This document shows positions 8,787-43,672 of a DNA stretch of 64,000 nt, piece after piece. How positions within the stretch are numbered: position 1 is the first letter of the stretch; the number at the start of each line of letters is the position of its first letter. Where the stretch lies: assembly GCA_039819565.1 (NCBI GenBank), contig JBCBRU010000001.1:4098-68097 (forward strand), given 5' to 3'. The stretch comes from Myxococcota bacterium. Lineage in GTDB: Bacteria > Myxococcota > Kuafuiibacteriia > Kuafuiibacteriales > Kuafuiibacteriaceae. Position numbers and translations under genes: made by a program. The notes beneath the pieces are model-generated. The model was given only the letters and a program-made list of their open reading frames with translations. It did no database searches and was not told the origin of the DNA.

Positions 8787-10907
8787 TCACATCGCTCCGA
8801 GCACATGGAGCAGGAAAGATTGCTCGAACGCCACTTCTTCCAGGGCCTCGAAGCGCCCGGCGGCGCCGCCGTGACCCGCTTCCATGTTCGTCTTGAGAAG
8901 AAGCAAGCGGTCGTCGGTCTTTCGAGCCCGGAGGCGCGCGACCCACTTGGCGGGTTCCCAGTACGTGACGCGCGGATCCGAGAGGCCGGCCAACACGAGC
9001 AGATGGGGATAAGGCCCCTCGCGGACGTTGTCGTAAGGAGAGTATCCCCGGATGTATTCGAAGGCCGAAGCATCGCGGATCGGATCGCCCCACTCGGGCC
9101 ACTCGGGCGGAGTCAAAGGGAGGGTCTCGTCCAGCATCGTATTCAAGACATCGACGAAGGGTACGTCGGCTACGATCGCCGAGAACAGCTCCGAGTGTTC
9201 GTTGGCCAAAACCCCCATCAACATACCGCCGGCGCTTCCTCCCATGGCGGCGATGCGAGAGGCATCGACAAGCCTACGGTCGCCAAGCGCTCGGGCCGCG
9301 GCGGCGAAATCGGAGAAGGTGTTTCGCTTCTTCTGAAGCTTTCCGTCTCGATACCAGCGGTAGCCGCGATCCATCCCCCCGCGTACGTGAGCGATCGCGA
9401 AGATAACTCCGCGATCTACGAGCGAGAGTCGGGTCAGCGAAAAGCCGGCGGGCATGGCGTGACCGTAGGCTCCGTAGCCGTAGAGAAGGCACGGGGCGCT
9501 CCCGTCGAGCGGGACGTCCGCGCGATGGAGGATGGACACCGGCACCTCCTCACCGTCGGAAGCCGAGATCATGAGTCGCTTGGCAACGTAACGGGCGGGG
9601 TCATGGCCGCTGGGGAGGATCTGCTCCTTTCGCAAAACCCGCTCCCCCGACGACATATCGTAGTCATAGGTCCGCTGGGGTGTAGTCATCGAGCTGTATA
9701 CGAATCGAAAGACCTGCGTATCGAACTCCCGCGCTCCCACGAGCCCGAGGCTGTAGACCTCCTCGGAGAAAGACACCTTGCGCTCGCGAGTGAGCTGGGC
9801 ATCGCTGAGATCGTAGATCACGAGTTGAGGGAGCCCGTCCACCCGTTCGATGACAACGAGGTGGTTTCGAAACAGGTGGTACCCAAGGCGGAGCCGCCCC
9901 GCCTGCGGGGGAAGCAGCTCACGCCAAGAGTTCCGAGCCTCATCGGCCCCTAACGCCGACAAAGGCATCGAGGCGAGCGTATAGTCCTCTGCCCCTCCCG
10001 CATTCGTCCGCATGATGAGGGACTCGCCGTGATGACTAACGTCATACTCTACCCCGACCGTACGGGTGGCCACCCGTACGGGGGCCGCACTTGGGCTCTC
10101 TGCATCCAGCAGCCAAACCTCCGAGGTGTCGTGGTCATGCGCATCGATAGTTACGAAGCGCTGACTCTCCGTGCGGGATAGGCCGACAAAGAACCCCGGA
10201 TCCTCTTCGAAATACAGCGTAGAGTCGTTCTCGGGTGGCTCACCGAGAACGTGCCGCTTTACGGTGCGCGGGCGATGTTCAGCGTCAAGCACGGTGTAGA
10301 TCACGGTCCGATCGTCGAGAAACTCGAAACTCCCGCTCGTCCCCTGAATGGAATCATCCAGCCATAACCCGGTCTCAACCTCTCGAAACCTCAAGGTCCA
10401 GAGCTCAGCGCCCGAAGTATCCTCGGCGATGGCTACGAGCCGATGATCCGGGGAGGGCTCGCAGGCACCTACCTGAAAGAAGGCTTTCCCTTTGGCCTCG
10501 GCATCCCCATCGAAGAGTACGGTTTCCTCTCCGCCTCCCCTCGGCCGCCGGCCGAAGATGGGGTGCTGGCCGCCAACCTCGTATCGCTGGTAGTAGCTCC
10601 ATGGCCCCTCGTCCTGAGGCACCGAGGCATCGTCCTCAACGATGCGTCCCCGGTACTCCTCAAAGAGCTCCTTGCGCAGATCGGCGAGGCCCTCGAGGCT
10701 GCGCGTGCAGTAGTCATTTTCGGCCTCAAGATAGGCGCGAATATCGGGCTCGAGCGCCGAGCCGTCCCGCATCGCCTCACGCCACCGTTGGGACCGGAGC
10801 CAAGCAAACTCATCGTTCCATCGATAGCCGTGAGCGGCCTGAGGGGCGGAGCGAGGCTCAGCCTGCGGGGGCGAAGGTAAGGCGTGGGGAGGGGATTCGT
10901 CGTTCAT
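8787..10907 (-). CDS. ptrB: S9A serine peptidase, oligopeptidase B / prolyl oligopeptidase family
   Basis: N-terminal beta-propeller region (YRWNDEFAWLRS...), C-terminal catalytic domain with nucleophile GGSAGGMLMG, then DVPFVDV and EAGHGG (His). Confidence 0.85.
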   Translation of the reverse strand: MNDESPPHALPSPPQAEPRSAPQAAHGYRWNDEFAWLRSQRWREAMRDGSALEPDIRAYLEAENDYCTRSLEGLADLRKELFEEYRGRIVEDDASVPQDEGPWSYYQRYEVGGQHPIFGRRPRGGGEETVLFDGDAEAKGKAFFQVGACEPSPDHRLVAIAEDTSGAELWTLRFREVETGLWLDDSIQGTSGSFEFLDDRTVIYTVLDAEHRPRTVKRHVLGEPPENDSTLYFEEDPGFFVGLSRTESQRFVTIDAHDHDTSEVWLLDAESPSAAPVRVATRTVGVEYDVSHHGESLIMRTNAGGAEDYTLASMPLSALGADEARNSWRELLPPQAGRLRLGYHLFRNHLVVIERVDGLPQLVIYDLSDAQLTRERKVSFSEEVYSLGLVGAREFDTQVFRFVYSSMTTPQRTYDYDMSSGERVLRKEQILPSGHDPARYVAKRLMISASDGEEVPVSILHRADVPLDGSAPCLLYGYGAYGHAMPAGFSLTRLSLVDRGVIFAIAHVRGGMDRGYRWYRDGKLQKKRNTFSDFAAAARALGDRRLVDASRIAAMGGSAGGMLMGVLANEHSELFSAIVADVPFVDVLNTMLDETLPLTPPEWPEWGDPIRDASAFEYIRGYSPYDNVREGPYPHLLVLAGLSDPRVTYWEPAKWVARLRARKTDDRLLLLKTNMEAGHGGAAGRFEALEEVAFEQSFLLHVLGAM

Positions 10908-10913
10908 CTGGGC

Positions 10914-12371
10914 TCACTCTTTCGAACAATCGACCGGAGGCGATGGATCCCCCGGAGTAGGTCGACACCACCTGAAGACCCCATCGGCGCCGCGCGCGAG
11001 CGACTCGTGGGACAGGCTGGGCGGAGCGCCTCCGGGATGATCCGCGCCTCGAAGAGTTCCGAGTACAACGCGATCCAACCGAACGTCTCCAGCCCAAAGC
11101 TCTATCGCGACGCCGGACTGCGCCGTGTCTCCCCGAGGCCGCACCACGAGCGCCTCGCCTGGAAACCAGGTGGTCCATGACCCGTCGTCTCCGAAAAACG
11201 CGCCAGGAGCATCAACCACCCGAAAAACGCTGGGCGTCCCATCGAGAACTCGAAGCTCGAGGCCAACTCGATCGGTATCCATCGCCGTCTCCCCTGCGTT
11301 AACGAGTTCAATCCACTCATCGGCGGCACTGACGGTGCCGGCCCCCGGGTAGCCGTCGAAGGGCACACCCGCCGGGATGCTGTCGCCCCAGTCTCTTCGT
11401 GGAGACGTCACCACCTCAGAGATCCGAGCAAAAACCGGCGTTGGAGTCTGCACGGAGAGTTCGGTTCGAGCCGTCTCTCCAGCCAGGTCTTCCGCGACGA
11501 TCTCGGCCGTCAGCGTCTCGTCCTCAGGAAGCGCCCCGTTCGATCGAAGCCATAGCCTAACCCCAGGCATATCCATGGACTCGAGGAGTCCGCGGTCCCC
11601 TTTCGATTGCCAAGCGCCCGAGACGCGAACCACCTCACTCGCCGTAACCTCGACCTCCAGCCGGCCAGGAAGAGCGCGGGCCTGTGCCGTCACCCCAGGA
11701 GGTACGCGATCCGCAACCGTCCCCGTACGAATAAGCACCAGGCTCTCCGTGGATGAGACTCGCGGCCCCACCAAACGAAGCCAACGTGGTGGGCACTCGG
11801 GGCTGCACACGAGCTTGGGTACGATCCGGAAGTGACCGGGGGTCTCGAGTTCCGGAGCCAGCTCCCACCGACCGCCCACATCATCCTCGAGGGCGTAGGT
11901 CTCGCCCGGTGCGGTCCCAGCAAGAACCACCCAATTCAAGTTCGCGGGGGCCGACTTTCCGGGTACGGGACGCCGGATCACAACCTCGCTTGGACGTTCA
12001 TCAGCCCTTCCGACCACCGTGAATGAGATCGAAGCCACGTCGATGGATGCGCCCTCCGAGTCTACGAGCGCACCGGTGAGGTCGACGAAGATCGTTTCTC
12101 CCCCCGGCCAGCGAGGCAGAGGGTAGAGCCGGAGACCCGATGAGAGCTCCTCCATCTCGAAAGACAAGTTGCCATTGAGTCCCTCTACGCGAGGGGCTCC
12201 CACCCAGCTCGCTTCCGCGCTCCAGTCGAGCGAAACTACGTCCGTCAGGTCCACGAGACCCTCTGGGTGCCTTTCGGGGACCAAAAGGTGGTCCTCACCG
12301 CGAGGAGCCTCGGGAGGGGCCCAGCACCCGGTGAAGATCAGCGCGAGGACTCGGCAAGCAACTGAGACCAC
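10914..12371 (-). CDS. lipoprotein with C-terminal lamin-tail (LTD) domain
   Basis: ORF 10914..13274 was trimmed because its first ~300 aa are R/G/S-rich and overlap better ORFs in other frames. GTG at 12371 gives VVSVACRVLALIFTGC (lipobox). C-terminal ISEVVTSP...SAADEWIELVNAGETAMDTDRVGLEL is LTD-like. Confidence 0.55.
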   Translation of the reverse strand: MVSVACRVLALIFTGCWAPPEAPRGEDHLLVPERHPEGLVDLTDVVSLDWSAEASWVGAPRVEGLNGNLSFEMEELSSGLRLYPLPRWPGGETIFVDLTGALVDSEGASIDVASISFTVVGRADERPSEVVIRRPVPGKSAPANLNWVVLAGTAPGETYALEDDVGGRWELAPELETPGHFRIVPKLVCSPECPPRWLRLVGPRVSSTESLVLIRTGTVADRVPPGVTAQARALPGRLEVEVTASEVVRVSGAWQSKGDRGLLESMDMPGVRLWLRSNGALPEDETLTAEIVAEDLAGETARTELSVQTPTPVFARISEVVTSPRRDWGDSIPAGVPFDGYPGAGTVSAADEWIELVNAGETAMDTDRVGLELRVLDGTPSVFRVVDAPGAFFGDDGSWTTWFPGEALVVRPRGDTAQSGVAIELWAGDVRLDRVVLGTLRGADHPGGAPPSLSHESLARGADGVFRWCRPTPGDPSPPVDCSKE

Positions 12372-12973
12372 CTTCCGCCGGTGGCGGCGTCCAGAGCGCC
12401 GTCGAGGCGCAGGAGCTGGACAAGGCCGTCTGCTGCGGGCTCCTTCGGAGCCTCCAGCTCGACCTCGAGGCGTTCGAAATACAGCTCCGTCACCTTTAGG
12501 ACCGCCGCCCGCACCACAGCAGATCGGCGTAGACGCTCGCGATGAGCCCGCAGCTCGTCGGACGAGAAGATGAGCTGACCGAGCTGAAACCGGAGGGACA
12601 CGTCGAGCCCATAGCCTCGACCTTCCGTCCAAGAGGGATCTCGCTCGGCTTGGGCTCGGATGTCGAGGTCGGAGTCGGTGCCGACGCGAACGTCGAGACG
12701 CGGTAGCCAGCCGCGGCTTCGGGCCCGACCTCCCCAGCTCCGTACCTCGGCATCGCTCGGCAACCTCAGAGAGGCTTCCGCCGCGTCCTGCACCGAAACC
12801 AAGCTGGGCCATCCGCTCCCGGCGACACGAGCCCTTAGTTCGCGCATGCGAGCCGCGTCTGCGGCCTGAGGAGATTCCCCCCGGGATGGTCCTTTCGACG
12901 CCGGAGGCGTCCCGAACGCTGTAGAGCCCAAGGCCGTCAGCTGGGCGGTGAATAGCCACGCTATCGCCCGCAT
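12338..12973 (-). CDS. hypothetical secreted protein
   Basis: Signal-like N-terminus MRAIAWLFTAQLTALGSTAFG and non-degenerate composition. Overlaps its neighbours by 13 and 34 nt in an operon-like arrangement. Confidence 0.5.
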   Translation of the reverse strand: MRAIAWLFTAQLTALGSTAFGTPPASKGPSRGESPQAADAARMRELRARVAGSGWPSLVSVQDAAEASLRLPSDAEVRSWGGRARSRGWLPRLDVRVGTDSDLDIRAQAERDPSWTEGRGYGLDVSLRFQLGQLIFSSDELRAHRERLRRSAVVRAAVLKVTELYFERLEVELEAPKEPAADGLVQLLRLDGALDAATGGRWSQLLAESSR

Positions 12974-13308
12974 CCCAGCACTCGCGCCCGCTCCCGATGC
13001 GCGAGCTCCAGCAGCGAGCCCTGCAAGCCACCTTTCGGGAGCTTCTCGAGAGGCTCCACGACGCAGACCGGGAGGCGAGGTGGGGATCGAAACGCCTCAA
13101 AGAGCGCGTCCCAGCCCACGACCACAGCGGCGCCGAATGCGACCTCCTCACTTCCTCGGGCGCTTTGGGACCGCCAGCGGAAGCCACTCCATATCCGAAC
13201 CTGCAACGGTTCGCTGGCCGCGGCCGCGGGCGCTCCGAGACCTGCAGGAAGACCTGCAGAGAGAGCAAATCCAATGAGTCTTAGGGCCAGGGTGCTTTTC
13301 CCAAACAC
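12961..13308 (-). CDS. hypothetical small secreted protein
   Basis: Signal peptide MFGKSTLALRLIGFALSAGLPAGLGAPAAAA. First ORF of an apparent three-gene minus-strand operon. Confidence 0.4.
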   Translation of the reverse strand: MFGKSTLALRLIGFALSAGLPAGLGAPAAAASEPLQVRIWSGFRWRSQSARGSEEVAFGAAVVVGWDALFEAFRSPPRLPVCVVEPLEKLPKGGLQGSLLELAHRERARVLGCGR

Positions 13309-13411
13309 CCCCTCCCCCGATTCAAGGGCTGTGCCGAGCCGAGCCGAGCTCTATAAAGGGCGGTCTCGTCCGAAAGTCGCACCTCCGGTTCGCTTATCGG
13401 AGGGAGCTCGT

Positions 13412-14260
13412 CTACCCGGCGGAACGGATCTGCACCAAGCCCTCGTTCATTCGCCCGCTTCGAAAGCCCTCGAGATCGAGGGCGACGAAGCGAAAACCGA
13501 TCTCGCGCCCGGCCGCGACGACGGCCTTTCGAGCTTCGAACGCCCGCGTGAGCTCGGCCTCGCCCACCTCCAACCGCACCATGTCCTCGTTCTCGCGAAC
13601 CAACCGCGCCCGCACGTCGAAGAACCCCATGTCGCGGAGGACGTCCTCCATCCGTTCGATGCGTGAGAGACGATCCGCGGTCACCTCCATCCCGTACGGG
13701 ACACGGCTCGAAAGGCACGCCAGCTGAGGTTTGTTCCACGTTGCGAGCCCAGCTCGTCGGGAGAGCGCACGGATCTCAGCCTTGGATAGGTGGGCCTCCG
13801 CCAACGGGTGTCGAACCCCCCGCTGAGCGGCCGCCGCGTGGCCGGGGCGATGATCCGAAAGATCATCGGCGTTGAAACCATCGACAACGACCGTTCCCGG
13901 GCTCGCCTCGGCGAGAAGGCCTGCGGCATCGAACAGCGTGTCCTTGCAGTAAAAGCAGCGAGACGGAGCATTCGCTCGATACTCCGGGCGATCGAGTTCG
14001 CGGGTGTCGACGATGCGATGGGCGATGCCAATGTCGCGGGCAAGGTGCTTCGCCGCTTCGAGCTCGCGGCCGGCCAACGAGGCGGAACGAGCCGTCAGGG
14101 CCTCCGCCCGCTCTCCGAGCACTCGATGGGCTGCCCAAGCCAGGTAGGTCGAGTCGACCCCTCCCGAAAAGGCGACCAAGACTTTCTCGACCTCTCCGAG
14201 ACGCGCAAAGACCGTGCGCTCCTTTGCGTCGAGGTCCGAATCCTCTGCGGCGACGTCCAT
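13412..14260 (-). CDS. larE: PP-loop ATP pyrophosphatase, LarE-like sulfur transferase (TIGR00268-type)
   Basis: PP-loop VLVAFSGGVDSTYLA; conserved Cys region APSRCFYCKDTLF; size about 280 aa, typical of LarE. Confidence 0.7.
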   Translation of the reverse strand: MDVAAEDSDLDAKERTVFARLGEVEKVLVAFSGGVDSTYLAWAAHRVLGERAEALTARSASLAGRELEAAKHLARDIGIAHRIVDTRELDRPEYRANAPSRCFYCKDTLFDAAGLLAEASPGTVVVDGFNADDLSDHRPGHAAAAQRGVRHPLAEAHLSKAEIRALSRRAGLATWNKPQLACLSSRVPYGMEVTADRLSRIERMEDVLRDMGFFDVRARLVRENEDMVRLEVGEAELTRAFEARKAVVAAGREIGFRFVALDLEGFRSGRMNEGLVQIRSAG

Positions 14261-14320: not shown

Positions 14321-15016
14321 TCAACCGGCCCCGAGGGCATGCGCGACGCGGAGAACCCGAACGACAGCCAGACTCCCCGGGTCGAGGCCGACGCGTCCCG
14401 CGCGGAAGAGAAGCTCGTCGGCCGTGACCTGGTCGAGATCGAGGTCCTCGAACCCGTCGAGGCCACGCATCCCGAGAGCCGCCAACAGCGGCCGATGGGT
14501 GCCCCTCGCACCGTCCTTCACGAGCGCGTCAGCCTCGGCTCGTCCATCACCGACGGTGAGCCAGATGCGGTCCGGAGAAAGAGAGCCGTTCGGATCGATC
14601 CACAGGACCCGCGCCGCGAGCCCCACCCGAACCTCCGGGGGAAAACCCATGCATCCGGACGCCTCGAGTTCGAGAAGCCGGTCCAGTCGCACCCGATCCG
14701 GCGTCCTCCGAGGGGCCTCACTCGAGAGACGGGCGCGGAGGCCTACTTCTCCCAGAGTCAGCCGCACCGGCCCCGTAGCGGCCACAACCGGCGCATCGAT
14801 ACGGCGTCCCTGCACCACCGTCCCCCGAGGAGAGGCCCCGAGGTCGACGATCACCATTCGCCCCCGGCGAATCTCGAGGCGGGCATGGCGCAGAGCGACG
14901 GTGGGGTGGGGAAGAACGAGGTCCGCGGATCGCGAGCGACCGATGAGCGCGGAGGCCCCGACACTGCGCTCACCGAGCCAGCGCCCCCGCAGCTCAACCT
15001 CGACCCGCATCCCCAT
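14321..15016 (-). CDS. FHA-domain protein
   Basis: N-terminal FHA signature LIGRSRSADLVLPHPTVALRHARLEIRRGRMVIVDLGASPRGTVVQGRRI. ATG at 15016 (or 15010) is preferred over the ORF start at 15082. Confidence 0.75.
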   Translation of the reverse strand: MGMRVEVELRGRWLGERSVGASALIGRSRSADLVLPHPTVALRHARLEIRRGRMVIVDLGASPRGTVVQGRRIDAPVVAATGPVRLTLGEVGLRARLSSEAPRRTPDRVRLDRLLELEASGCMGFPPEVRVGLAARVLWIDPNGSLSPDRIWLTVGDGRAEADALVKDGARGTHRPLLAALGMRGLDGFEDLDLDQVTADELLFRAGRVGLDPGSLAVVRVLRVAHALGAG

Positions 15017-15046
15017 GACCGCAAGGTACGTCAGCAGTGCTGACGG

Positions 15047-15877
15047 ATGTACCTTTCCCGGGGGTGCTCCCGGAGGGAACATCCCCGGGTGCTCCTCGTC
15101 ACCTGGGCGTCTCTAGCGATCGGCTTTGAGGCAGGATCTGCCGATCTTGGGTCTCGACTGAGGCTTCCCGTGGCGGCCGCGGTCCGCCCCGCCACCGTCC
15201 CCGACGATCATTTTGCCGTCCGATTCTCGGGGACCCTGCTGACGCGCCCCGGTCAGTGGAGCGCGCCTCTCGTTGCGGGCGCTGGATACGGTCTGACCGA
15301 CAACTTCGAGATCGGGACCGCGCTTCTCCGCTTCACGCTGGCCGAGGCCGAAAGTGGGGTTCCTGGCGCCGACGGCCTCACCGCCCCTACCATCTACGGT
15401 GCCGCTCGACTCCCCCTAGGGCCCGTGGAGCTCGGCGGGCGGGCAGAGCTGGAGCTTCCGCTCGAGGGCTTTCGAGCGCTCTCCGCGGGCACGTTCGTGC
15501 GGTTCCACTTCGGCTCGGTGGCTCGAGTGGACCTGAGCGCCGAAGCGACCCTGTTTTACGACGGCGTTGAGGTGAGTTGGCCCTCCGTCGGAGATTTAGG
15601 GGCGACCTTCAATCTCCTCGAGCGCTGGGCCTTGACCGGGGGCCTCAGCTTTCGCAGCGATGACCTAGGCGCCGACCTGCGCGCCGTCCCTCGGGTGGGG
15701 ACCCTCGTAACGCTAGGGCAGCCAAGCTCGCCTCCTCTTCTCGACCTCGAGGTCGCTCTTCTGTTCCCGGCCGCGGCCTTGACCGGTCCGGATTTCGAGG
15801 AGGGTTGGGGCGGCTCCCTCATCCTCACCCTCTTCTTCGACGACCCCGCCGATGGCGTGGGCCCGGACCCTTTTTAG
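15047..15877 (+). CDS. hypothetical beta-strand-rich protein (possible outer-membrane protein); start uncertain
   Basis: Long ORF with non-degenerate composition, alternating hydrophobic pattern and C-terminal Phe. No clear signal peptide at the listed start. Confidence 0.4.
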   Translation: MYLSRGCSRREHPRVLLVTWASLAIGFEAGSADLGSRLRLPVAAAVRPATVPDDHFAVRFSGTLLTRPGQWSAPLVAGAGYGLTDNFEIGTALLRFTLAEAESGVPGADGLTAPTIYGAARLPLGPVELGGRAELELPLEGFRALSAGTFVRFHFGSVARVDLSAEATLFYDGVEVSWPSVGDLGATFNLLERWALTGGLSFRSDDLGADLRAVPRVGTLVTLGQPSSPPLLDLEVALLFPAAALTGPDFEEGWGGSLILTLFFDDPADGVGPDPF

Positions 15878-15880
15878 GGA

Positions 15881-17089
15881 CTAAGCAGCCTGATACGCGA
15901 CGGGGGCGATCTCGAGGGTGCTCCGGATCTCGGAAATGGCAGGGCTGGCCGGAAGCGCAATATGGGTTGCACCCTGATTCTGAGCCATGGCCGCGGCGAG
16001 CCAGGGGTCCGGGTGGTCTCGAAGCGGTCGGACCGGCAGCCCGCTGAAACCGATCTCTTGGCTAGGGCCCCCGACCAAGAGGCCGTCCACGCCCTCGAGG
16101 TCGAGGTCTCGCAGATCGATATCGAGCCAGGACGGCACCGCGAGAATTTTTTCAGCGCCCATGGATATCCACCCGGCGCGAAGATCCCAGACGTCAGCCT
16201 CACCGGATGAGTAGGCGAAGAGAGGTCCCCCGGGTGTTCCTCGGCCCCCCAGCTGCTCCGCCACCACCATGAGCCCGATGGGCTCGCCGGTGCTGCTGAT
16301 GAGCTCGATGGCCTGACCCGCGGAGCCCACAGGAAGCGAGGCTTGCAGCGTCATCGGTCTTCTCCAGGGCACCCCCTGGGACAGACGCCCCAGCGCTTCG
16401 ACGATACGCGCCTCGTGGGGCCGCTGAAAACCGGTGAGGGGGGAGAGCACCCCGAGCTCAAAGTCTCGAACCCGCTCCGACTGCTCTCGATTTAGGCGGA
16501 GCTCACGGCCCTCGGCGAAGCTCCTCAGAGCCTCCCGTTCTCGGGGAGCCAGTCTCCGGTGGGCCAACCGTCCCCCTACGGGGGCGATTGGGGAGGGACT
16601 CGTGCCTCCACGAAACTCCAGATCCGGAAAACTCTCGGGAGCGGGCCGCGATTCATCAAAAGCTCTGCGATCCTGACTCCATCGATACGCGGCCACCTCG
16701 CCGCAGCGTCCTCGGCGAACCTCGAAGACGAGGTGCACCAGGTCGGGCATCAGCGGGTAGCCGTTGGGGGCGATGGCGGCGCGGTCCACGGCGGAGAGAT
16801 ACGCGCCGGCGTCGGGATGGCTGTGGTACAGCACCCGCTCCACGCGTCCCGCTTCATCAGCTTTTTCGAGCACTTCGAGGTGCTCTCGATCGTCGAAGGC
16901 AAAGCGGTCAGGTTCCGCAGCGACGTTGGCCAGGGCGACCGGATGGTCAGCCACGTCCTCAGTCCGAGAGCCAAACACGAGCCCACAAGCTTCCCTGGGG
17001 TAGCGTTCTTCGGCGTCCGCGCGCATGGCGGCCAGAGCGCGCGCCGAGATATCCACCCCAAAGGCCGTCCAGCCCGCCCCGCTGGTCAT
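15881..17089 (-). CDS. JAMM/MPN+ metalloprotease fused to a degenerate ATP-sulfurylase-like module
   Basis: JAMM motifs are complete: Glu in PREACGLVFG and HSHPDAGAYLSAVD (HxHx7Sx2D). Residues ~185-280 (ELRLNREQSERVRDFELGVLSPLTGFQRPH...GVPWRRPMTLQA) resemble the PUA-like N-domain of ATP sulfurylase. The start ATG overlaps the stop of the upstream giant gene (ATGA). Confidence 0.8.
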   Translation of the reverse strand: MTSGAGWTAFGVDISARALAAMRADAEERYPREACGLVFGSRTEDVADHPVALANVAAEPDRFAFDDREHLEVLEKADEAGRVERVLYHSHPDAGAYLSAVDRAAIAPNGYPLMPDLVHLVFEVRRGRCGEVAAYRWSQDRRAFDESRPAPESFPDLEFRGGTSPSPIAPVGGRLAHRRLAPREREALRSFAEGRELRLNREQSERVRDFELGVLSPLTGFQRPHEARIVEALGRLSQGVPWRRPMTLQASLPVGSAGQAIELISSTGEPIGLMVVAEQLGGRGTPGGPLFAYSSGEADVWDLRAGWISMGAEKILAVPSWLDIDLRDLDLEGVDGLLVGGPSQEIGFSGLPVRPLRDHPDPWLAAAMAQNQGATHIALPASPAISEIRSTLEIAPVAYQAA

Positions 17090-20000
17090 GAGCGCCCCCC
17101 CAGGCGACGGAGACGCTCGCTCTTGTCGTCGAGCTCTCGTTCGAGGGCGGAGCGACGTCGTTCCGCTTCGTCGATGACCCCTTCCAGCTCCGCCACCCGC
17201 CGCTCCATACGCACCTGCGCTTGCTCGGAGGTCTGGAGCAAACGACGGAGACGCTGTCGCTCGCTTCCCACCGCCGCCAGCTCCCGTTCGAGCCTCTTCT
17301 TCTCATCGCTCGAGCCGCCCCCCCCATCCGTCGACGGGGGCCGACCTCCCGAAACCGCGAGTTCCGCCTGCAGGTCCGCCACCCGACCCTCGGAGAGCTC
17401 CAGGGCTGCTCGCAGTTTTTCCTGAGCCCCGAGCGCCGAGCGGGCCGCTTCGCGATGACGATCCACGTCCGCCCGAGTAGCTTCGAGCTCTCGCCGGGCC
17501 TGCTCGAGATGTCCACGAGCTTGCTCGAGCGCCTCGGAGTCGGCGGACGCCGGGGCGCCGCCCTCCGTCTCGACGAGGCGGCGACTCACTGTGTGCATCT
17601 CTTTACGGGCCTCGGCGAGTTCCTGCTCAACGCTCTTGATCCGCTCCTGACCTTCTTCCGCCCGGCGTTCCGCCTCGGTAGCGCGGGCGTACACCTCGCG
17701 AACCTCGAGCCGAGCCTCATCCCGTTCGAGCTCGAGTTTGCTGTAGCTTTCACGGAGTCCCTCAAGGTCGCCGCGAAGCGCTTGGAGTTCGGCTTCTCGA
17801 TGTCCAGCCGCGGACGGCTCCCGGCCCCCTCGTGCGGTCTCGAGCTCCGCTTCCAGGGCGTCGATGCGATCTCTCGCGCGCTTGACGGCCGCTTCGGTGC
17901 TTCCCAGTCCCATCGCGAAGCGATCGCGCTCGGCCGTAACTCCCGCGATGCGATCTTTGAGCTGCGTCATCTCCTTCTCCCGTTCGGAGACCTCTTGCTG
18001 CGCCTCGACGAGCTCTGACTCGGCCGCACCGCGGCGCTCCCTCTCGAGATCCACGCGACGCTCGGTGGCGGCCAGCGCTCCCGTCTTGTCCGCGGCCTCC
18101 GCTCTCGCGGTCTCGACCTCCGAAGCCACTTCCGAGAAGCGCTGCTCGAGATCGGCGATGCGAGCCCGCGCACCCTCTAGTTGCGCACGGGCAGCGGCAT
18201 CACCTCGAGCATGGGCAGCTTCTGCCTCTTGCGTGGCCTTGCGGCGAGACTCCGCCGCGCGACGACGCGCTTCGGCGAGATCGTTGGAGAGCTGGAGGGC
18301 TCGCGCCCTCTCCTCTCGGAGCGCTTCCTCCAGCCGGCGCTGCGTCTCCTCCGACGCCGTCGCCGCCTCGTTCAGGCGGACATGAAGGTCCGCAACTTCG
18401 CTCTCCAAGTCCTCGCGGCCCTCGCTGGGCCGAGGGACCTCGGCCAATCGGAGCTCGTCGTCCCTCGCCAGGAGCTCGAGTCGAGCTTCCCGTACCGCCT
18501 CTTCCTGGGCGGCAAGATCCGCCATGAGATCCAGTTCGTGGGTCTTGAGCGCGTCGATCTCCCGAGCCGACGCCTGCTCCTGGTCACGACTTCGCTGGAG
18601 CTCACCTTCCAGTTCTTCCACCGCGGCGCGAAGCTGATCCTGCTGGGCACGCTCATCCTCGACGAGACCCTCGAGTTCATCGACCTGGGCTCGCCACGCC
18701 GTATCTCGCTCCTTGGCTTCGATCAGCTCTGTTTCCAGCGTCTGAAGAGCCTGAGCGCTCGAGCCGCGCTCGGCCTCGGCCTCTCGATGATCTGCGCGGA
18801 GTCGGTCCAACTCGGCCTGCAGCCCGTCCCGGGCCGCTTCTTCCTCCTGGCGTCGAGCCTCCTCGGCATCCAGCTGCTGCCTCAGCTTTTCCACCAGCGA
18901 CCGACCGGCCGAAAGTCGATCCTCGAGGGCACGGATCGCCTCGTGGCGCTCCATATCTCGGAGCCGCAGTCGGTCCTCGGCCTGCCGAAAGCGGGCCAGG
19001 GCATGGCGCTGCGCCTCCACTCGGGCTTCGAGCTCCCGACGTTCCCGCTCCGCCATGCCGCTTCGGTCCTCGGCGGAGGCGGCTCGAAGCTCGGCCATGG
19101 CGAGCGCTTCCCAGGAGCGCTCAACCTCTTCGCGGGCGCGCACCCGCGGAAGCGCCGCGGAAGCGATCTCTCGCTGGTGGTCGCGCTCTTCCAGCTCCGC
19201 GCGAAGTGCTACGCACTCGAGGCGAGCCATCCGTGCCTCTGACTCGAGTTCGTCGAGTCGCTCCCTAAGGGCCCGCAGAGACGCAAGGGACTCGTCTCGC
19301 TCGCGCTCCGCCGCCCCGAGGCTCTCGAGCTGTGCTCTCGCGGCTGCGAGCGCGCGCGAGGCCGGCACCTGACGGGCCTCCGCGATCTCCAGATCCTGGT
19401 GAAGGTCATCGACGCGACCACGCGACCTCTCGAGCTCATACTGCAAGCCCTGTTGTCGCTGCTCGGAAGACTCGAGCGCATCTTCCAGCGCACCGTGACT
19501 GTCGATGGTGTCGACGAGAAGGGCCTCCAGGGCGCGATGACGCTCATCGCGCTCGTCGACCTCGGTCCGAAGCCGGCTCACCTCCTGGCGAGCCCGCGCG
19601 TCGCGTTCCGCGAAGCGGCTCGAGTGAGCTTCGGCTTCAGCCTTCTCGCCGAGCGCCCGACCGAGCGCGTCCTCGAGCTGGGCCCGGGTAAGTTCGAGCT
19701 GATCGAGACGCCTCTCGAGTGTCGACCTTTCGCTCCGCTCGACGTTCCAGGCCCTCGCCCAGCGCACCCATTCGGTCTCCGAGGCGTCGGCGCGGTGCTC
19801 ACGGGCGGAGCGCAGATCGACCTCGAGCCGCTCGACGTGGGTATGAGCTTCATCCCGCTCGGCGGCAAGGCTGGAGGAGGCGGTGGCGAGCGTGTCGCGC
19901 TCCTCGCGAAGGACCGCGACCCGTTCTCGGTGGCGCTCGAGCTCGTCCGCCATATGCCGAGCCGTCAACTCGAGAGCCCGTCGTTCGCCTCCCAGAGCAA

Positions 20001-22422
20001 GCTGGGCCTGGGTCAGCTTAGCGACATCCTTCTCACGATCTTGAAGGGCTCGGGACGTGCGCTCGAGCCGAGCGGATGACTCTCCCAGCTCGCTCGTGCG
20101 TTGATCGAGAACCAGCTGGAGTCGATGGGCTTCATCGACAGCCCGACTTGCCTGTACGCGCAGGCTGTCAATCTCCGCGTCGGCGCGCTGGCGCTCTTGC
20201 ACTCCGTGTTCGAAGCTCGTGCGCAACTGCTCGAGCTCCGCCACGAGCTCGGCTCGGTCGCCCTCGACCGAATGTAGAGCCCCCGCGAAGCGCTGGATCT
20301 CGGCATCCTGAACGCTCGCACGCCGAGCGAGCTCCATCTCTAGCGAGCCGATCCGATCCTGAGCCGCGCGAAGCTCCTCGCGGGCGCGCCTGAGGTCCCC
20401 TTCCGCGTCCTCGTAGCGCGCGCGCAACTCCGGGTCCTCCCGAGGTCGGCTCTCGCTGCTCACCAGCTGCGCGCGCAACTCCTCCAGCCCCTTCTCGAGC
20501 TCTCCGCGCCGGTCTTCGAGGCTGCGCTCTCGCGCTTGGGCCTCGTGAAGCGCAGCCTCGAGGGTCGCTCGATCGCGCGCATGCTCCGCCTGGCTCTGGG
20601 CGCCCTGCCGTTCCAGATCCGCACGGGCCTGGGTGAGCCTCTGGACCTCTTCCTCGGTGCCGCCCTTGACCTCTTCGAGGTCGCGCTCGAGCTCCGACAC
20701 TCGGCCTTCGAGGGCCGCTCGAATCCGACGCCCTTGCGCCGCTTGAGACTCGGACGAGCTCAGCCGTTCACGAGCCTCGTCAAGCTCGCCTCGGAGTCGA
20801 GCAAGGTCGGATTCGAGCTCCGCGACGGTTTCGTCGGCGGCCCCCGGGCCTGGGCCCACGGAGCGCAACTTATCCTGCAGCTCTCCACGGGCGAGCTCGA
20901 GCATCTGAAGTCGAGTGGTCTTTTCGGCTACTTCGAGCTCGAGCTCCCGCAACTTCACCGTCCGACGGGCCTCAGCCTCGCGATCGCGATCTTCGCTGCG
21001 TCTCTCCCTTTCGCTGAGCGCGGTCTCGAGATTGCGCACCTGTGCTCGCAACCCCTCAGTCGTTTGCGCATGACGGGCCGCTTGCGCATCGAGACGTAGG
21101 GTACGCTCGGCAAGCTCCGCCTCCAGAGCGCGAACCTTGTCCTCGAGGGTCACGCCGGACCTCGGGTCAGTGCCTCGACCTCGAAGGCGTGCGACCTCTT
21201 GCTGAAGCTCTCGAATGGCGCTCTGACGAGCATCAAGAAGCGCCGTCAATCGCTCCGTGGCAGCATCGGACGACTCTGGAGAGGGCTCGGCCGGCCCCTT
21301 CAGTCGTGCCTCCGCGGCCGCTCGGGCCTCTCGCTCCGAGGCGAGGGTAGCCTCGATCTCGCGGCGCGCCGTACGCTCGTCGGCGAGCTGCGATTCGACC
21401 TCGGAACGCGCTCGCAGCTCCGACTCCAGCCGCTCCTCGACCTCTCGCGAGGGCTCGATGCGACCCTCGAGCGTCTCCACCTCCACCGGCTCCGGGGTGG
21501 GAAGCGGGGCCGCCTCCACCACCGCCGGAGAGAGAAGGCGGGTCTCGGGAGGGTTCGCCGGTTCGAGATGGGACTCGACGGCGGCTCGGAGCCGCGGCAG
21601 GCGAGCCCCAAGCATCCGCAAGCTCGCCTCCTGCGCGCCGAGCGTGGCCCGAGCATCTCGGAGGGCGTCGGCCAGCCGCTTGAGCGTGGACGCGTCCGCC
21701 GTGCGTCGACCCTCCTGAAACCGCTCTACCTCCGTCCAGGGCACTTCGACGAGCTGGGGTCGATCCAGCAGACGGGCGGGCCCGACCACCACCAAGACCG
21801 AGCTCGGCGAAGCCTCCGCGTCGATTCCGTTGGGTCTGAGACCCTGCGAACCTGCGGGGCGAATCGTGAATCCCACGAATGGGGTCTGATGGTAGAAGGC
21901 CGCGCTCGGGAATCGCGCCCGAATGGCTCGAGTGACCCGCTCGGCGTCGGTTTCCGAGCCGAGGCGGCCTTCGAGGCGGGCGAGAAGACCAGGTCCCGAA
22001 GCTCGGTATCCGAGGACGAAGAGGCCGCCCGCCGCGACGACCCGGCGCGCCTCGCGCAGGAAGGGGTCGGCTCCGAGGGCGGCGACCGACGGCCCGAGAT
22101 CGGGGACGAGCAAAACGTCAAAGGCGTCGTCGGGAAAGTCGAGGCGCCCCGGGGGCGCCGTCACCCGCTGGACGGCGTCGGAATGGGGCCCCCCTTGGGC
22201 CTCGGTTTGCACCGAGACCACCGAGCGCGCGCCGGCCTCGACCAAGCGAACCGCGCTGGAGGGGTCTGGAGCCCCGACTTCCAGGACCCTGCGCCCCTCC
22301 ACCAAAGGAAGAACCAGGGCGTAGCTGGCCCAGGCTTCGGCGCCGTCGAGCCTCGACGAAGCCCCCGGACTCGAGGCCCGGCTATCGCTCGATCGACTGG
22401 AAACCATCGACTTCGCTCCCAA
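17086..22422 (-). CDS. giant coiled-coil protein (1778 aa) with N-terminal class-I methyltransferase-like domain
   Basis: N-terminal ~230 aa have a Rossmann-MTase-like pattern (RRVLEVGAPDPSSAVRLVEAGARSVVSV, DDAFDVLLVPDL, GGLFVLGY). The remainder is a continuous E/R/A/L-rich heptad-type sequence. The long plus-strand ORFs here are antisense shadows. Confidence 0.85.
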   Translation of the reverse strand: MGAKSMVSSRSSDSRASSPGASSRLDGAEAWASYALVLPLVEGRRVLEVGAPDPSSAVRLVEAGARSVVSVQTEAQGGPHSDAVQRVTAPPGRLDFPDDAFDVLLVPDLGPSVAALGADPFLREARRVVAAGGLFVLGYRASGPGLLARLEGRLGSETDAERVTRAIRARFPSAAFYHQTPFVGFTIRPAGSQGLRPNGIDAEASPSSVLVVVGPARLLDRPQLVEVPWTEVERFQEGRRTADASTLKRLADALRDARATLGAQEASLRMLGARLPRLRAAVESHLEPANPPETRLLSPAVVEAAPLPTPEPVEVETLEGRIEPSREVEERLESELRARSEVESQLADERTARREIEATLASEREARAAAEARLKGPAEPSPESSDAATERLTALLDARQSAIRELQQEVARLRGRGTDPRSGVTLEDKVRALEAELAERTLRLDAQAARHAQTTEGLRAQVRNLETALSERERRSEDRDREAEARRTVKLRELELEVAEKTTRLQMLELARGELQDKLRSVGPGPGAADETVAELESDLARLRGELDEARERLSSSESQAAQGRRIRAALEGRVSELERDLEEVKGGTEEEVQRLTQARADLERQGAQSQAEHARDRATLEAALHEAQARERSLEDRRGELEKGLEELRAQLVSSESRPREDPELRARYEDAEGDLRRAREELRAAQDRIGSLEMELARRASVQDAEIQRFAGALHSVEGDRAELVAELEQLRTSFEHGVQERQRADAEIDSLRVQASRAVDEAHRLQLVLDQRTSELGESSARLERTSRALQDREKDVAKLTQAQLALGGERRALELTARHMADELERHRERVAVLREERDTLATASSSLAAERDEAHTHVERLEVDLRSAREHRADASETEWVRWARAWNVERSERSTLERRLDQLELTRAQLEDALGRALGEKAEAEAHSSRFAERDARARQEVSRLRTEVDERDERHRALEALLVDTIDSHGALEDALESSEQRQQGLQYELERSRGRVDDLHQDLEIAEARQVPASRALAAARAQLESLGAAERERDESLASLRALRERLDELESEARMARLECVALRAELEERDHQREIASAALPRVRAREEVERSWEALAMAELRAASAEDRSGMAERERRELEARVEAQRHALARFRQAEDRLRLRDMERHEAIRALEDRLSAGRSLVEKLRQQLDAEEARRQEEEAARDGLQAELDRLRADHREAEAERGSSAQALQTLETELIEAKERDTAWRAQVDELEGLVEDERAQQDQLRAAVEELEGELQRSRDQEQASAREIDALKTHELDLMADLAAQEEAVREARLELLARDDELRLAEVPRPSEGREDLESEVADLHVRLNEAATASEETQRRLEEALREERARALQLSNDLAEARRRAAESRRKATQEAEAAHARGDAAARAQLEGARARIADLEQRFSEVASEVETARAEAADKTGALAATERRVDLERERRGAAESELVEAQQEVSEREKEMTQLKDRIAGVTAERDRFAMGLGSTEAAVKRARDRIDALEAELETARGGREPSAAGHREAELQALRGDLEGLRESYSKLELERDEARLEVREVYARATEAERRAEEGQERIKSVEQELAEARKEMHTVSRRLVETEGGAPASADSEALEQARGHLEQARRELEATRADVDRHREAARSALGAQEKLRAALELSEGRVADLQAELAVSGGRPPSTDGGGGSSDEKKRLERELAAVGSERQRLRRLLQTSEQAQVRMERRVAELEGVIDEAERRRSALERELDDKSERLRRLGGRS

Positions 22423-34732: not shown

Positions 34733-37168
34733 TCAGCCGTCGCGGAGTTCTGCACGGAGGTCCCGACGAAGCGCCTCCACGATCGCAGCCTGGCTGGATT
34801 CGACGTCGCCGTCCGCCAGCGTTCGGTCGGCGGCGCGGAAGGTGAGCTCAACCGCCAGCGACTTCTTGCCCGCCGGAACGCCCTTCCCTTCGTAGACATC
34901 GAAGATGCGTAGCCCTTCGAGCTCGGGGGGAGCCGCGCTCCGGATGCTCGCTTCGACCGCGGCCGCTTCGATCTCCGTGTCGACGAAGAAGCTGAGATCT
35001 CGCTGAGCCGGGGGGAGCTTGGGAAGTGCTCGATGGCGAGGCTCCGGGCCTCGAGCTGCCGCCCAGCGGTCCAGGTCGATCTCGACGACGAAAACCGGGG
35101 CGCCCTCGAGGCCAAAGCGATCCGCGACATCCGGGTGAAGCTCACCGTAGTAACCGAGCTCTTGTTCGCCGGAAGCCACCGCTGTGGAAGATCGGGGGTG
35201 GAGCCACGTTCGCTCGGCACGACGGTGGTATACGTCACGGACTCGAAACACATCCTGCAGTCCCTCGAGGACGCCTTTGAGGTCATAGACGTCGACGAGG
35301 GTGTCGTCACTGGCCCAGCTTCGAACCGACCGACGCCCCCGAAGCACGAGAGCGAGGCGGTTGACCTCCACCGGGAGCGTGTCGTCGTCGCCCCAAGCGA
35401 AGGTTCGCCCGAGCTCGAACATTCGTAGGTCCGCAATGCTCGGGAGTTGGTCCTGGTTGTGCCGGGCGGATTGCAGCAAGGCAGGCACCAGCGAGGGCCG
35501 CATGACCCGGCTCTCCTCGCCTAGGGGATTGGCAATACGAACCCAGCGCGAGGCTTCCTCGAACCCCTCAGCTCGAGCCGCCGAGGTGAAGGCTAGGGAG
35601 ATGGTCTCGAGAAAACCCATGCCCACGAGCACATCGCGGGCTTCCGCCTCGGGGTCTCGTTCCGGTGGGTGGGTCCACGGCGCCCCCGCGGCCGCCGGCA
35701 AGGCGCCCTCCAGCCCATCATATCCCCCCAGACGACCCACTTCCTCGATGAGATCGGCCTCGATCCCGAGGTCGGGGCGCCAAGAGGGAGCCTCGAACCA
35801 CGTCGCTCCCGCCGGTTGCTTGCGCTTCAGCTTCAGCGTCTTGAGCCCAAGACGCGTCAATCCATCTTTCGCCTCAGCGAGCGTCACCTTCCGCCCGAGG
35901 AGCATGGACGCGCGCTCCGCGCGGAACGGGATGGGATCTCGGGCACGCATTTCGCCCTCGGCCACAACCTGACCTGGATGGACCGTCCCCCCTGCCCACT
36001 CCGCGATGAACGCGGCACAGCGATCGAGCGCAATCTCGACGCGCCCCGGATCCGCACCGCGCTCGAATCGGTGGGAGGCTTCGGTATGCATGCCGTGCCG
36101 CTTAGCGGTCTTCCTGACCGAGGTAGGATCGAACCACGCGGACTCGAGGAGAACGCGAGTGGTGGCGCTTCGGCCCTCCGTCTCCCCCGTCACCTCGCTC
36201 TCGAAGCCGCCCATGATGCCCGCCAAAGCCACCGGCACCTCGGCGTCGGCGATCACCAAGTCCTCGCCCACGAGCTGCTTTTCGGTCCCGTCGAGGAGGC
36301 GAATTTTTTCGCCCTCTGCGGCCCGGCGTACTCGGATCTCATGCCCCCCCAAAGCGTCGAGATCGAAGGCGTGCAGAGGGTGACCCTGTTCGAGCAGAAC
36401 GAGGTTCGTGGCGTCGACCACATTCGAGATCGGGCGCTGTCCCAGAGCGCGCAGGCGATCCTGCACCCAACGAGGCGAAGGCCCGATCGTCACTCCCGTG
36501 ATCACCCGGGCGGCGTACTTCGAGCAGCGCTCAGGGTCGTCGATGTGGACCGACGCGAGATCGGTCGCCGGCCCGCCTTCTTCCCGGAGCGAGATCTCAA
36601 TCTCGGGGGACGCTAGCCCCTCCAAGGCGGCCAAATCCCGCGCTACACCGAGATGAGAGAGCGCATCGGGACGGTTGGGAGTGATGCCGAGCTCCAGGAC
36701 GACATCCTCGTAACCGATCGCCTCCGACAGGGGACGACCGAGGGGCGCAGTCGGGGAAAGAACCAGGATGCCCTCGTGGTCTTCGGAGAGCCCGAGCTCA
36801 TCCTCGGCGCAGAGCATGCCCTCGCTCGCCACCCCTCGGATCTTGCGCGGCTCCATCGTCATCCCGTTGGGGAGCGTCGTTCCGAGCGTGGCCAGGGCCA
36901 CCCTCTGCCCTTCTTCGACGTTGGGCGCGCCGCACACCACGGTCTGCTCGCGCGCGCCGTCGGACACGGTCGCGAGCCGAAGCTTGTCCGCCTTCGGATG
37001 GGGTTCCACGCGGACGACCTCGGCCACGACCACTCCACGCAGAGCGTCGGCGAGCCGGTTCTCACCCTCGACCTCGAGACCGAGTCCGGTGAGACGCGCG
37101 GAGATGACCTCGACCGGGGCGTCGAGCCCCGGGAGAAGAGAGCGAAGCCAATCAACACTGACGAGCAT
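34733..37168 (-). CDS. pheT: phenylalanine--tRNA ligase beta subunit
   Basis: 811 aa. N-terminal tRNA-binding domain (MLVSVDWL...HPKADKLRL), B3/4 and B5 regions, C-terminal FDX-ACB (KKSLAVELTFRA). Directly downstream of pheS. Confidence 0.97.
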   Translation of the reverse strand: MLVSVDWLRSLLPGLDAPVEVISARLTGLGLEVEGENRLADALRGVVVAEVVRVEPHPKADKLRLATVSDGAREQTVVCGAPNVEEGQRVALATLGTTLPNGMTMEPRKIRGVASEGMLCAEDELGLSEDHEGILVLSPTAPLGRPLSEAIGYEDVVLELGITPNRPDALSHLGVARDLAALEGLASPEIEISLREEGGPATDLASVHIDDPERCSKYAARVITGVTIGPSPRWVQDRLRALGQRPISNVVDATNLVLLEQGHPLHAFDLDALGGHEIRVRRAAEGEKIRLLDGTEKQLVGEDLVIADAEVPVALAGIMGGFESEVTGETEGRSATTRVLLESAWFDPTSVRKTAKRHGMHTEASHRFERGADPGRVEIALDRCAAFIAEWAGGTVHPGQVVAEGEMRARDPIPFRAERASMLLGRKVTLAEAKDGLTRLGLKTLKLKRKQPAGATWFEAPSWRPDLGIEADLIEEVGRLGGYDGLEGALPAAAGAPWTHPPERDPEAEARDVLVGMGFLETISLAFTSAARAEGFEEASRWVRIANPLGEESRVMRPSLVPALLQSARHNQDQLPSIADLRMFELGRTFAWGDDDTLPVEVNRLALVLRGRRSVRSWASDDTLVDVYDLKGVLEGLQDVFRVRDVYHRRAERTWLHPRSSTAVASGEQELGYYGELHPDVADRFGLEGAPVFVVEIDLDRWAAARGPEPRHRALPKLPPAQRDLSFFVDTEIEAAAVEASIRSAAPPELEGLRIFDVYEGKGVPAGKKSLAVELTFRAADRTLADGDVESSQAAIVEALRRDLRAELRDG

Positions 37169-41363: not shown

Positions 41364-41493
41364 GGCTTTGGTGATGCTCGCCGCGGCGAGACCTCGAAAT
41401 GAAGCTCGGACCTGACAGCAGGTCAAGCCACTCTCGAGGCTTCCGGCGCATGAAGTCGGATTTCGAGCGCTCTTGGCGCTCTTCGCACAACGC

Positions 41494-43593: not shown

Positions 43594-43672
43594 ATCGGGC
43601 GCGGTATCCGCCGAGTCGGAGCCGACGTCAACCCTCGCGCTGATGGCCGCGTTGCGCTAACCAGGTGGGCCG

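Follow-up and report, generated by a model that had tools for sequence, protein, structure and literature searches.

A rare fusion of a predicted JAMM peptidase with a pseudo-ATP-sulfurylase module in uncultured Myxococcota

What task could a protein fulfil that joins a JAMM-type peptidase to what looks like a piece of ATP sulfurylase? This question is raised by a gene located at positions 15881..17089 on the minus strand of a 64-kb stretch of DNA (hereafter the window; contig JBCBRU010000001.1) from a member of the Myxococcota. An earlier note, made from the letters of the window alone, had read this gene as coding for an active JAMM isopeptidase fused to a catalytically dead sulfurylase-like module, a scaffold from a sulfur pathway that had been recruited to target the peptidase. 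The fusion is real, rare and undescribed, and it represents a variation, peculiar to one lineage, on the known CysO/CysM/Mec+ system rather than a new type of system. The explanation that we favour, and to which we attach a reasonable though not a high degree of confidence, is that of a carrier-trimming, cysteine-releasing JAMM peptidase with a pseudo-sulfurylase appendage.

The gene is a single, uninterrupted open reading frame (ORF) of 402 codons plus stop that runs from ATG to TAG, as revealed by an ORF scan of the window; the plus-strand frame across 15881-17089 is full of stops, which places the gene on the minus strand. Gene calling based on the GC content of third codon positions (GC3) is not discriminating in the window (67% GC), and gene calls therefore rest on homology. 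The fusion architecture is common to 17 full-length homologue clusters, and an alignment of these proteins (38-77% identical, 381-438 amino acids) served both for the analysis of conserved residues and for an AlphaFold2 model with a mean predicted local distance difference test (pLDDT) value of 88 and a predicted template modelling (pTM) score of 0.88. Two domains of the protein, Prok-JAB and PUA_2, exceed the curated cut-offs of Pfam. They are joined by a linker (residues 148-167; 16589..16648, minus strand) that carries a conserved PDLE(L/F)R motif with invariant residues P155, L157 and R160, and has lower pLDDT values (62-78). All of the strings on which the earlier note had based its reading (PREACGLVFG, HSHPDAGAYLSAVD, SPLTGF, G..WRRP, ILAVPSWLDIDL and GATHIALPAS) are present in the translation.

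The JAMM/MPN+ metallopeptidase domain comprises residues 10-147 (16649..17062, minus strand), and the Prok-JAB model (PF14464) matches residues 16-117 with an E-value of 4.7e-16 and a score of 59.1 bits against a cut-off of 25. Its catalytic set is complete: E33, embedded in PREACGLVFG, as well as H89, H91, S99 and D102, which form the zinc-binding motif HSHPDAGAYLSAVD (H89-x-H91-x7-S99-x2-D102; 16784..16825, minus strand), are invariant in all 17 homologues, in agreement with the complete JAMM signature that the earlier note had recognized. When the structural model was compared by Foldseek with the Protein Data Bank (PDB), its N-terminal domain resembled the minimal JAMM proteins 2kks and PfJAMM1 (5ld9/5lda). 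By its sequence, the fusion protein is thus a member of the Prok-JAB family, and we predict, as part of the explanation favoured above, that it is an active JAMM zinc peptidase of the Mec+/HcyD type.

The second domain corresponds to the PUA-like N-domain of ATP sulfurylase (PUA_2; residues 168-282; 16244..16588, minus strand), as supported by Pfam, hidden Markov model (HMM) and hhalign comparisons. The PF14306 match covers residues 168-278 (E-value 4.7e-10; 39.7 bits versus a cut-off of 27), and the SPLTGF and GR..G..WR.P motifs of this domain are kept in the window protein and are invariant or nearly so in the 17-sequence alignment. The remaining residues, 283-402 (15884..16243, minus strand), are a truncated and motif-less remnant of the catalytic, HUP/Rossmann-type core of ATP sulfurylase. 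Searched against the PDB sequences, the profile of the fusion family finds the ATP sulfurylase 8a8d at an E-value of 9e-18, and also 3cr8 and 1r6x; an hhalign comparison with the genuine sulfurylase (Sat) encoded at a related locus, L035, aligns residues 168-344 with residues 2-219 of Sat at a probability of 97.9% (E-value 5e-13). ATP sulfurylases are likewise the best PDB matches of the structural model, with 3cr8 at the top (E-value 4e-12) and 8a8d, 1j70, 1i2d, 1jhd and 1v47 among the others, and these Foldseek alignments extend over 280-340 columns, well past the PUA-like domain. Profile, pairwise and hhalign alignments place the C-terminal stretch of about 120 amino acids opposite the initial and central portions of the sulfurylase core. 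Because the long structural alignments and the comparisons of individual motifs agree with this placement, the last third of the protein can be regarded as homologous to the catalytic core. The relation to ATP sulfurylase that the earlier note had wished to see examined by profile searches and by structure prediction with a fold search is thereby upheld.

What remains of this core has lost the means of catalysis. At the site of the QTRNPxHxxH (HxxH) motif, the window segment R304...ILAVPS stands opposite R...VAFQTRNPIHRAHE of the genuine sulfurylase, so that ILAVPS is aligned with VAFQTRNP; the window protein reads AVPSWLDI..D at this position, which is variable across the family, whereas the Sat of L035 keeps the motif segment AFQTRNPIHRAHE. 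Further on, VDGLLVGG of the window protein aligns with VDGLMIHP, and WLAAAMAQNQGATHI aligns with the segment of the genuine enzyme that contains the GxTH strand and the GRDHAG side. The GRDHAG motif, which follows the GxTHfIvG strand and is intact in the Sat of L035 and in 8a8d, is missing: the window protein has GATHIALPAS, found like ILAVPSWLDIDL in the C-terminal remnant, and this site is not conserved in the family. Neither the HxxH nor the GRDHAG motif is present in any of the 17 family members. Furthermore, the core is shortened to about 120 amino acids from about 210 through the deletion of some 90 residues, and the protein stops about 25 residues past the GxTH strand. The Pfam model of the catalytic domain, PF01747, gives no match in the window protein and none is recorded for the 17 homologues; the matches to the NCBIfam Sat models are confined to the N-terminal part and reach only 34 and 22 bits, where 387 and 323 are required. 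Since neither the catalytic domain nor the catalytic motifs can be found, the module falls outside the ATP sulfurylase enzyme family. The C-terminal 120 residues are not without conservation, as R304, D335, W363 and AAMAQNxGAT are invariant or nearly invariant in the alignment. Taken together, the sequence comparisons identify the C-terminal module as a pseudoenzyme derived from ATP sulfurylase that is predicted to be unable to make adenosine 5'-phosphosulfate (APS), as the earlier note had supposed from the position of the last 120 residues and the unrecognizable motifs.

Inactive sulfurylase-like domains already have a precedent. They are found in the APS kinases of Thiobacillus denitrificans (3cr8) and Entamoeba histolytica, where they are thought to stabilize the hexamer or oligomer (PMC13213808). 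As in the fusion protein, a sulfurylase fold devoid of activity is attached there to a further enzyme of sulfur metabolism; 3cr8 is the best structural and one of the best profile matches of the fusion protein. The 3cr8-type domain is, however, of full length and is fused to an APS kinase, whereas in the family considered here about half of the core is left and the partner is a JAMM peptidase.

The combination is rare. An exhaustive profile search through 1.84 billion cluster representatives yielded 28 matches at E<=1e-30, about 16 of which are full-length fusions of 390-440 amino acids, accompanied by a few fragments and by a shorter branch; overall, about 20 clusters possess the fusion architecture. 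In the shorter branch (338-363 amino acids), the PUA-like motifs are eroded as well (SPADGF, SPSLGF, SPLTCL), and these eroded forms are still located in ThiS-CysM operons. Among the matches of this search, none joins a JAMM domain to an intact sulfurylase; matches of odd length that were considered as candidates for such a protein turned out to be fragments, eroded variants, or fusions with TusA, radical SAM or aminotransferase domains. The full-length fusion occurs in eight of 185,579 species-representative genomes, all of them metagenome-assembled genomes of Myxococcota or 'Deltaproteobacteria'. An identical partial protein is labelled 'Mov34/MPN/PAD-1 family protein [Myxococcota bacterium]' in the databases, and no description of a JAB-sulfurylase fusion was found in the searchable literature, in keeping with the statement of the earlier note that no characterized fusion of this kind was known. 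In the 150 best-scoring matches of the family profile, the same JAMM group also appears as fusions to TusA (P0049; 242 amino acids), to a radical-SAM domain (P0062; 575 amino acids) and to a class-III aminotransferase (P0132; 577 amino acids). This group of JAMM proteins is prone to fusion with neighbouring enzymes.

The genomic neighbourhood of the fusion genes points to the function of the family. One half of the family, clade A, is more distant from the window protein, with which it shares about 40% identity. Its fusion gene occupies the last position of a cysteine-synthesis block that encodes, in this order, a short CysK-like protein dependent on pyridoxal 5'-phosphate (PLP), a MoeB/ThiF-type E1, a ThiS-like carrier of 92 amino acids that matches a model for SAMP1/MoaD-like proteins, a small ThiF-like ORF, a CysM-type cysteine synthase (331 bits to the cysKM model) and the JAMM fusion. 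The E1 is usually fused to a TusA/YedF-like domain. The full block is present upstream of the fusion gene in eight loci (L001, L003, L004, L006, L010-L012 and L087), and it is partial in two others (L013, L014). The nearest stand-alone JAMM proteins, which comprise about 150 amino acids, are encoded in most loci in a block of the same order, and at least one of ThiS, E1 (ThiF) or the PLP-dependent PALP family adjoins the JAMM gene in 68 of 73 loci. This arrangement of clade A and the stand-alone proteins matches classes 4c and 4e in the catalogue of ThiS-JAB-E1-cysteine-synthase operons compiled by Iyer, Burroughs and Aravind, class 4e consisting of ThiS, JAB, E1, SirA/TusA and ATP sulfurylase (PMC1779556). 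The link to sulfur-carrier proteins, which the earlier note had drawn from characterized JAMM proteins, is therefore borne out by half of the fusion family and by its stand-alone relatives, and the survey of distribution and neighbours for which that note had called shows a rare Myxococcota-type fusion with conserved surroundings. The linked carriers all contain an invariant PAIAGG followed by zero to three residues (A, R, C, CCC, ASR, AQR and others); about three quarters of them carry one to three residues past the Gly-Gly, and most carriers would consequently need to be trimmed before they can be activated.

Two further genes of the block deserve a remark. The small ORF between the genes for ThiS and CysM (87-232 amino acids; L001 8689-9063, L003 9256-9954, L004 8821-9084, L006 8711-9076) resembles the N-terminal Rossmann part of ThiF (RYARQ...GAGVGR), and the first PLP gene of fusion-type operons encodes a shortened CysK-like protein of 239-286 amino acids. 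Both proteins may also be pseudoenzymes of the operon.

Several JAMM peptidases that act on sulfur carriers offer a frame for comparison. Mec+ (Rv1334) of Mycobacterium tuberculosis is a stand-alone protein of about 150 amino acids, while in the HcyD/HcyS pair of Wolinella succinogenes and the QbsD/QbsE pair of Pseudomonas fluorescens the JAMM protein unmasks the Gly-Gly of carriers that are made with extra residues. Like Mec+, the fusion protein is a predicted JAMM zinc peptidase, and the clade A members of its family are encoded next to genes for a ThiS-like carrier, an E1 and a cysteine synthase of the CysM type; both the fusion family and its nearest stand-alone relatives hold the same operon position. 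Unlike Mec+, it possesses about 250 extra residues of sulfurylase origin, the E1 of its operons bears TusA instead of rhodanese, and the copy in the window lacks carrier, E1 and CysM neighbours. The part that each of CysO, CysM, MoeZ and Mec+ plays in the mycobacterial pathway is established, that of Mec+ being the hydrolysis of the CysO-cysteine adduct (PMC3227635). The tails of one to three residues on most fusion-linked carriers recall the HcyD and QbsD systems, and Wolinella-type operons include sulfate-assimilation genes, among them that for ATP sulfurylase (class 4e, PMC1779556); their sulfurylase is a separate and active enzyme, whereas the peptidases studied here are joined to an inactive fragment of such an enzyme. 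The archaeal desampylases HvJAMM1 and PfJAMM1 (5ld9, 5lda) share the minimal JAMM fold and motif (Foldseek TM-score to PfJAMM1, normalized to the target, 0.80-0.83) and act on ThiS/MoaD-like small archaeal modifier proteins (SAMPs), and the fusion-linked carriers match the SAMP1 model. In this case, however, the setting is a biosynthetic operon with no evidence of protein conjugation, and the NCBIfam desampylase model scores only 50.7 bits on the fusion protein, below its cut-off of 130.

We suggest the following function. In its ancestral and still commonest setting, the peptidase would be encoded by the last gene of an operon for cysteine synthesis via a protein thiocarboxylate. By analogy with HcyD and QbsD, it would remove the one to three residues past the Gly-Gly of the carrier and thereby prepare the carrier for adenylation and thiocarboxylation by the E1; by analogy with Mec+, it would hydrolyse the carrier-Gly-Gly-Cys adduct made by CysM, and thus free cysteine and recycle the carrier. 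A carrier with a terminal GG-Cys would, by the same analogy, mimic the product of CysM, the very species that Mec+ cleaves. The pseudo-sulfurylase module would be a structural element that mediates oligomerization or the docking of a partner; a scaffold role is the most likely one for this dead module in light of the 3cr8-type domains.

How does the gene in the window, whose surroundings are different, fit into this picture? It belongs to a subclade (clade B, hereafter the orphan subclade) in which the gene order is two amidohydrolase genes, a gene for a giant coiled-coil protein, the JAMM fusion gene, a gene for an FHA protein and one for a LarE-family PP-loop ATPase, with RuvCAB further on. 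The giant ORF of the window (17086..22422, minus strand; 1778 amino acids), a conserved upstream neighbour, has a methyltransferase-like N-terminus (VLEVGAPD; weak Methyltransf_11 matches in homologues) and an A/E/R/L-rich coiled coil of about 1400 amino acids. Its TGA stop codon overlaps the ATG of the fusion gene by 4 bp (tcATGAcc), and an overlap of the same size is present in the P0003 contig. Ten fusion loci have a homologue (1300-2900 amino acids) encoded upstream, and no homologue occurs at any of the 73 loci of stand-alone JAMM genes; the giant gene directly adjoins the fusion gene in L002, L005, the P0003 contig, L088 and L089. The conserved C-terminal tail of the protein reads ...ERLRRL[G/A/S]G.., and the window copy ends with RLRRLGG-RS.

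The LarE-like ATPase (13412..14260, minus strand), a member of a family of sulfur transferases, scores 296 bits with TIGR00268 against a cut-off of 150. Its gene lies 0-3 kb downstream of the fusion gene in loci of both clades (L001, L003, L004, L008, L010-L014 and L088), which it adjoins directly in L001 (4-bp overlap) and in L088 (67-bp gap), and it also occurs near some of the stand-alone JAMM operons. The protein possesses the cysteines of CFYC and ACLSS, a pattern that we take to be that of Fe-S-dependent LarE homologues; no larA, larB or larC genes were seen near its gene. It may be a further partner in sulfur transfer.

Since in clade A, too, the ThiS block is bordered by the giant gene and the LarE-like gene, the simplest history is that the five-gene block was deleted at the base of the orphan subclade. 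This loss would have brought the fusion gene directly behind the giant coiled-coil gene, to which it would be translationally coupled. Within the orphan subclade, identities amount to 0.62 for the JAMM domain, 0.58 for PUA_2 and 0.47 for the C-terminal remnant, versus 0.56, 0.43 and 0.45 in the ThiS-linked clade A; all catalytic residues are kept, and no position carries a fixed difference between clades A and B. To judge from this conservation, the fusion peptidase of the orphan subclade stays under constraint, and for this reason the substrate of the window copy is most probably still a ThiS-like carrier whose gene lies at another place in the genome.

The fusion probably arose once, because a neighbour-joining tree built from JAMM domains unites all fusions in one clade, whose sister group is the main clade of stand-alone JAMM proteins of the Myxococcota. 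The module would have come from a sat gene beside the JAMM gene. Such an arrangement exists in L035, from a Polyangiales genome, where genes for a stand-alone Mec-like JAMM protein, an AprA-like flavoprotein of 602 amino acids (FAD_binding_2 and Succ_DH_flav_C matches) and a genuine Sat stand in a row (10001-13818) directly after the ThiS-CysM genes; this locus physically joins APS metabolism to the carrier operon. We regard a neighbouring sat gene as the probable source of the module, with L035 as a plausible, thinly supported route.

Several observations weigh against the explanation as a whole. A six-frame hmmsearch with HMMs built from related loci (ThiS, ThiF, PALP and the small ThiF-like ORF) found no ThiS, E1 or PALP at E<=1 in the window, as the earlier note had stated for ThiS/MoaD/E1-like partners; a weak tblastn match to ThiF at 36137-36298 lies inside pheT and is spurious. 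The same three genes are also absent from the stretches read around six other members of the subclade (L002, L005/L007, the P0003 contig, L088, L089), for which locus flanks of at most 10 kb were covered. The distant partner is thus assumed rather than seen. Furthermore, a sat gene is found near a stand-alone JAMM gene in only one of the 73 loci, and the tree from which the single origin was read carries no support values.

Might the peptidase of the orphan subclade have found a new task instead? It could serve a new substrate or partner, either the giant protein or the LarE-like protein, with the module as a new recognition surface. This would explain why the gene and all its modules are kept in seven contexts that lack the ThiS/E1/CysM block, and it would be in accord with the stop/start overlap in the window and in the P0003 contig, with the restriction of giant-protein homologues to fusion-bearing loci, with the RLRRLGG-RS tail of the window's giant protein, and with the LarE-like gene retained beside the fusion gene. 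We nevertheless consider such a change of function improbable. The giant gene precedes the ThiS block in clade A as well, so that its adjacency in the window follows from the block deletion alone; its co-occurrence with the fusion gene perhaps reflects no more than shared ancestry, and the two clades differ at no fixed residue. The RLRRLGGRS tail was considered as a cleavage site for the JAMM peptidase; its Gly-Gly is not conserved in the orthologues (L004 RLRRLTELTD, L012 RLRRINDLGE, L089 unrelated), and the idea was kept only as part of this low-probability alternative. If it were true, the orphan protein would be a JAMM peptidase that acts without any ubiquitin-like or ThiS-like partner operon. 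A similarly small chance may be granted to the idea that the module has a remodelled binding site for sulfate, APS, 3'-phosphoadenosine 5'-phosphosulfate (PAPS) or some related nucleotide and exerts allosteric control over the peptidase, which would couple the release of cysteine to sulfate activation and could coexist with the function that we favour. In fungal ATP sulfurylase, a dead APS-kinase-like domain is a sensor of PAPS and thus a precedent for a pseudoenzyme with a sensory role. In its degree of conservation the module comes close to the JAMM domain, its invariant R304, D335, W363 and AAMAQNxGATH correspond to positions conserved in real sulfurylases, and the pTM score of the model suggests a fixed arrangement of peptidase and module. 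On the other hand, both loops that hold phosphate and sulfate (QTRNPxHxxH and GRDHAG) are missing along with the 90 deleted core residues, and the shorter branch erodes its PUA-like motifs (SPADGF, SPSLGF) and yet stays in ThiS-CysM operons, which fits a structural role better.

The missing partner genes could also mean that the gene of the window's subclade is a decaying relic, non-functional since the loss of the operon. That is very unlikely, given a reading frame that is uninterrupted in 10 or more diverged members (49-77% identity), invariant catalytic residues, a conservation of every domain that equals or exceeds that in the ThiS-linked clade, and deeper members (P0026, P0019) that show long retention after the loss. 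Still harder to defend is a true bifunctional enzyme whose C-terminal part would be a divergent but active ATP sulfurylase: the clear homology over PUA_2 and part of the core is offset by the absence of HxxH and GRDHAG from all 17 proteins, by a core of about 120 instead of about 210 amino acids in which PF01747 is never detected, and by the fact that even 3cr8, the closest structure, represents a sulfurylase-like domain without activity (PMC13213808). Just as little can be said for a deconjugating peptidase of an anti-phage ubiquitin-like system, either of the Bil type or like Cap3 of the cyclic-oligonucleotide-based anti-phage signalling system (CBASS). JAMM peptidases do fill that role, and PADLOC gave marginal matches for the JAMM region (E-values 0.004-0.008) and coiled-coil matches of the giant protein to LmuB/JetC; these matches are insignificant or compositional, no E1, E2, cyclase or effector is encoded nearby, the gene lies in a syntenic housekeeping region (RuvABC, PheST, RecG, prolyl oligopeptidase), and its relatives are located in cysteine-synthase operons.

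Seen as a peptidase of the carrier system with a pseudo-sulfurylase appendage, the family adds to the fusion partners of inactive ATP-sulfurylase-like domains a third one that had not been described before, and it provides the first case found in the searchable literature of a sulfur-carrier peptidase joined to the relic of a sulfate-activating enzyme. It can be viewed as a genomic 'Rosetta stone' that connects the activation of sulfate with cysteine synthesis by the protein-thiocarboxylate route, for which the source of sulfur in the mycobacterial system is still described as unknown (PMC3227635). It also illustrates possible stages in the decay of an enzyme into a scaffold, from a Sat encoded beside a JAMM gene via the fusion of PUA_2 and half a core to the eroded forms of 340-360 amino acids. 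Whether a peptidase of this sort can persist once its operon is gone is a question for which the orphan subclade is a natural test case. In practical terms, the family is of modest importance: it is tiny, its members come from uncultured Myxococcota only, and the pathway behind it is already known.

The other genes around the fusion gene can be described briefly. Between it and the LarE-like gene lies the gene for the FHA-domain protein (14321..15082, minus strand; weak NCBIfam FHA matches), which tblastn also detects downstream of the fusion gene in L002, L004, L010, L012, L013 and L014. A gene on the opposite strand for an outer-membrane-protein-like (OMP-like) product is often inserted after the fusion gene in the orphan subclade; in the window (15047-15877, plus strand) it converges on the fusion gene with a gap of 3 nt and codes for 276 amino acids with a signal-like N-terminus, a beta-rich composition and a C-terminal Phe. 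This gene is conserved in L002, matches no family model, and was set aside as unrelated to the fusion. The rest of the window encodes housekeeping functions (RuvABC, PheST, RecG, H+-PPase, Psd, an SNF2 helicase, an M16 peptidase, a prolyl oligopeptidase), with no sulfur or ubiquitin-like genes in this remainder. An ORF of 766 codons (41473-43773, plus strand) is no gene: it is a shadow ORF, typical of high-GC DNA, antisense to that of the H+-pyrophosphatase (41494-43593, minus strand; 907 bits). A 786-amino-acid ORF (10914-13274, minus strand) without family match corresponds to two genes in L001 (255 and 524 amino acids), and represents either a gene fusion or an ORF with a mis-extended start.

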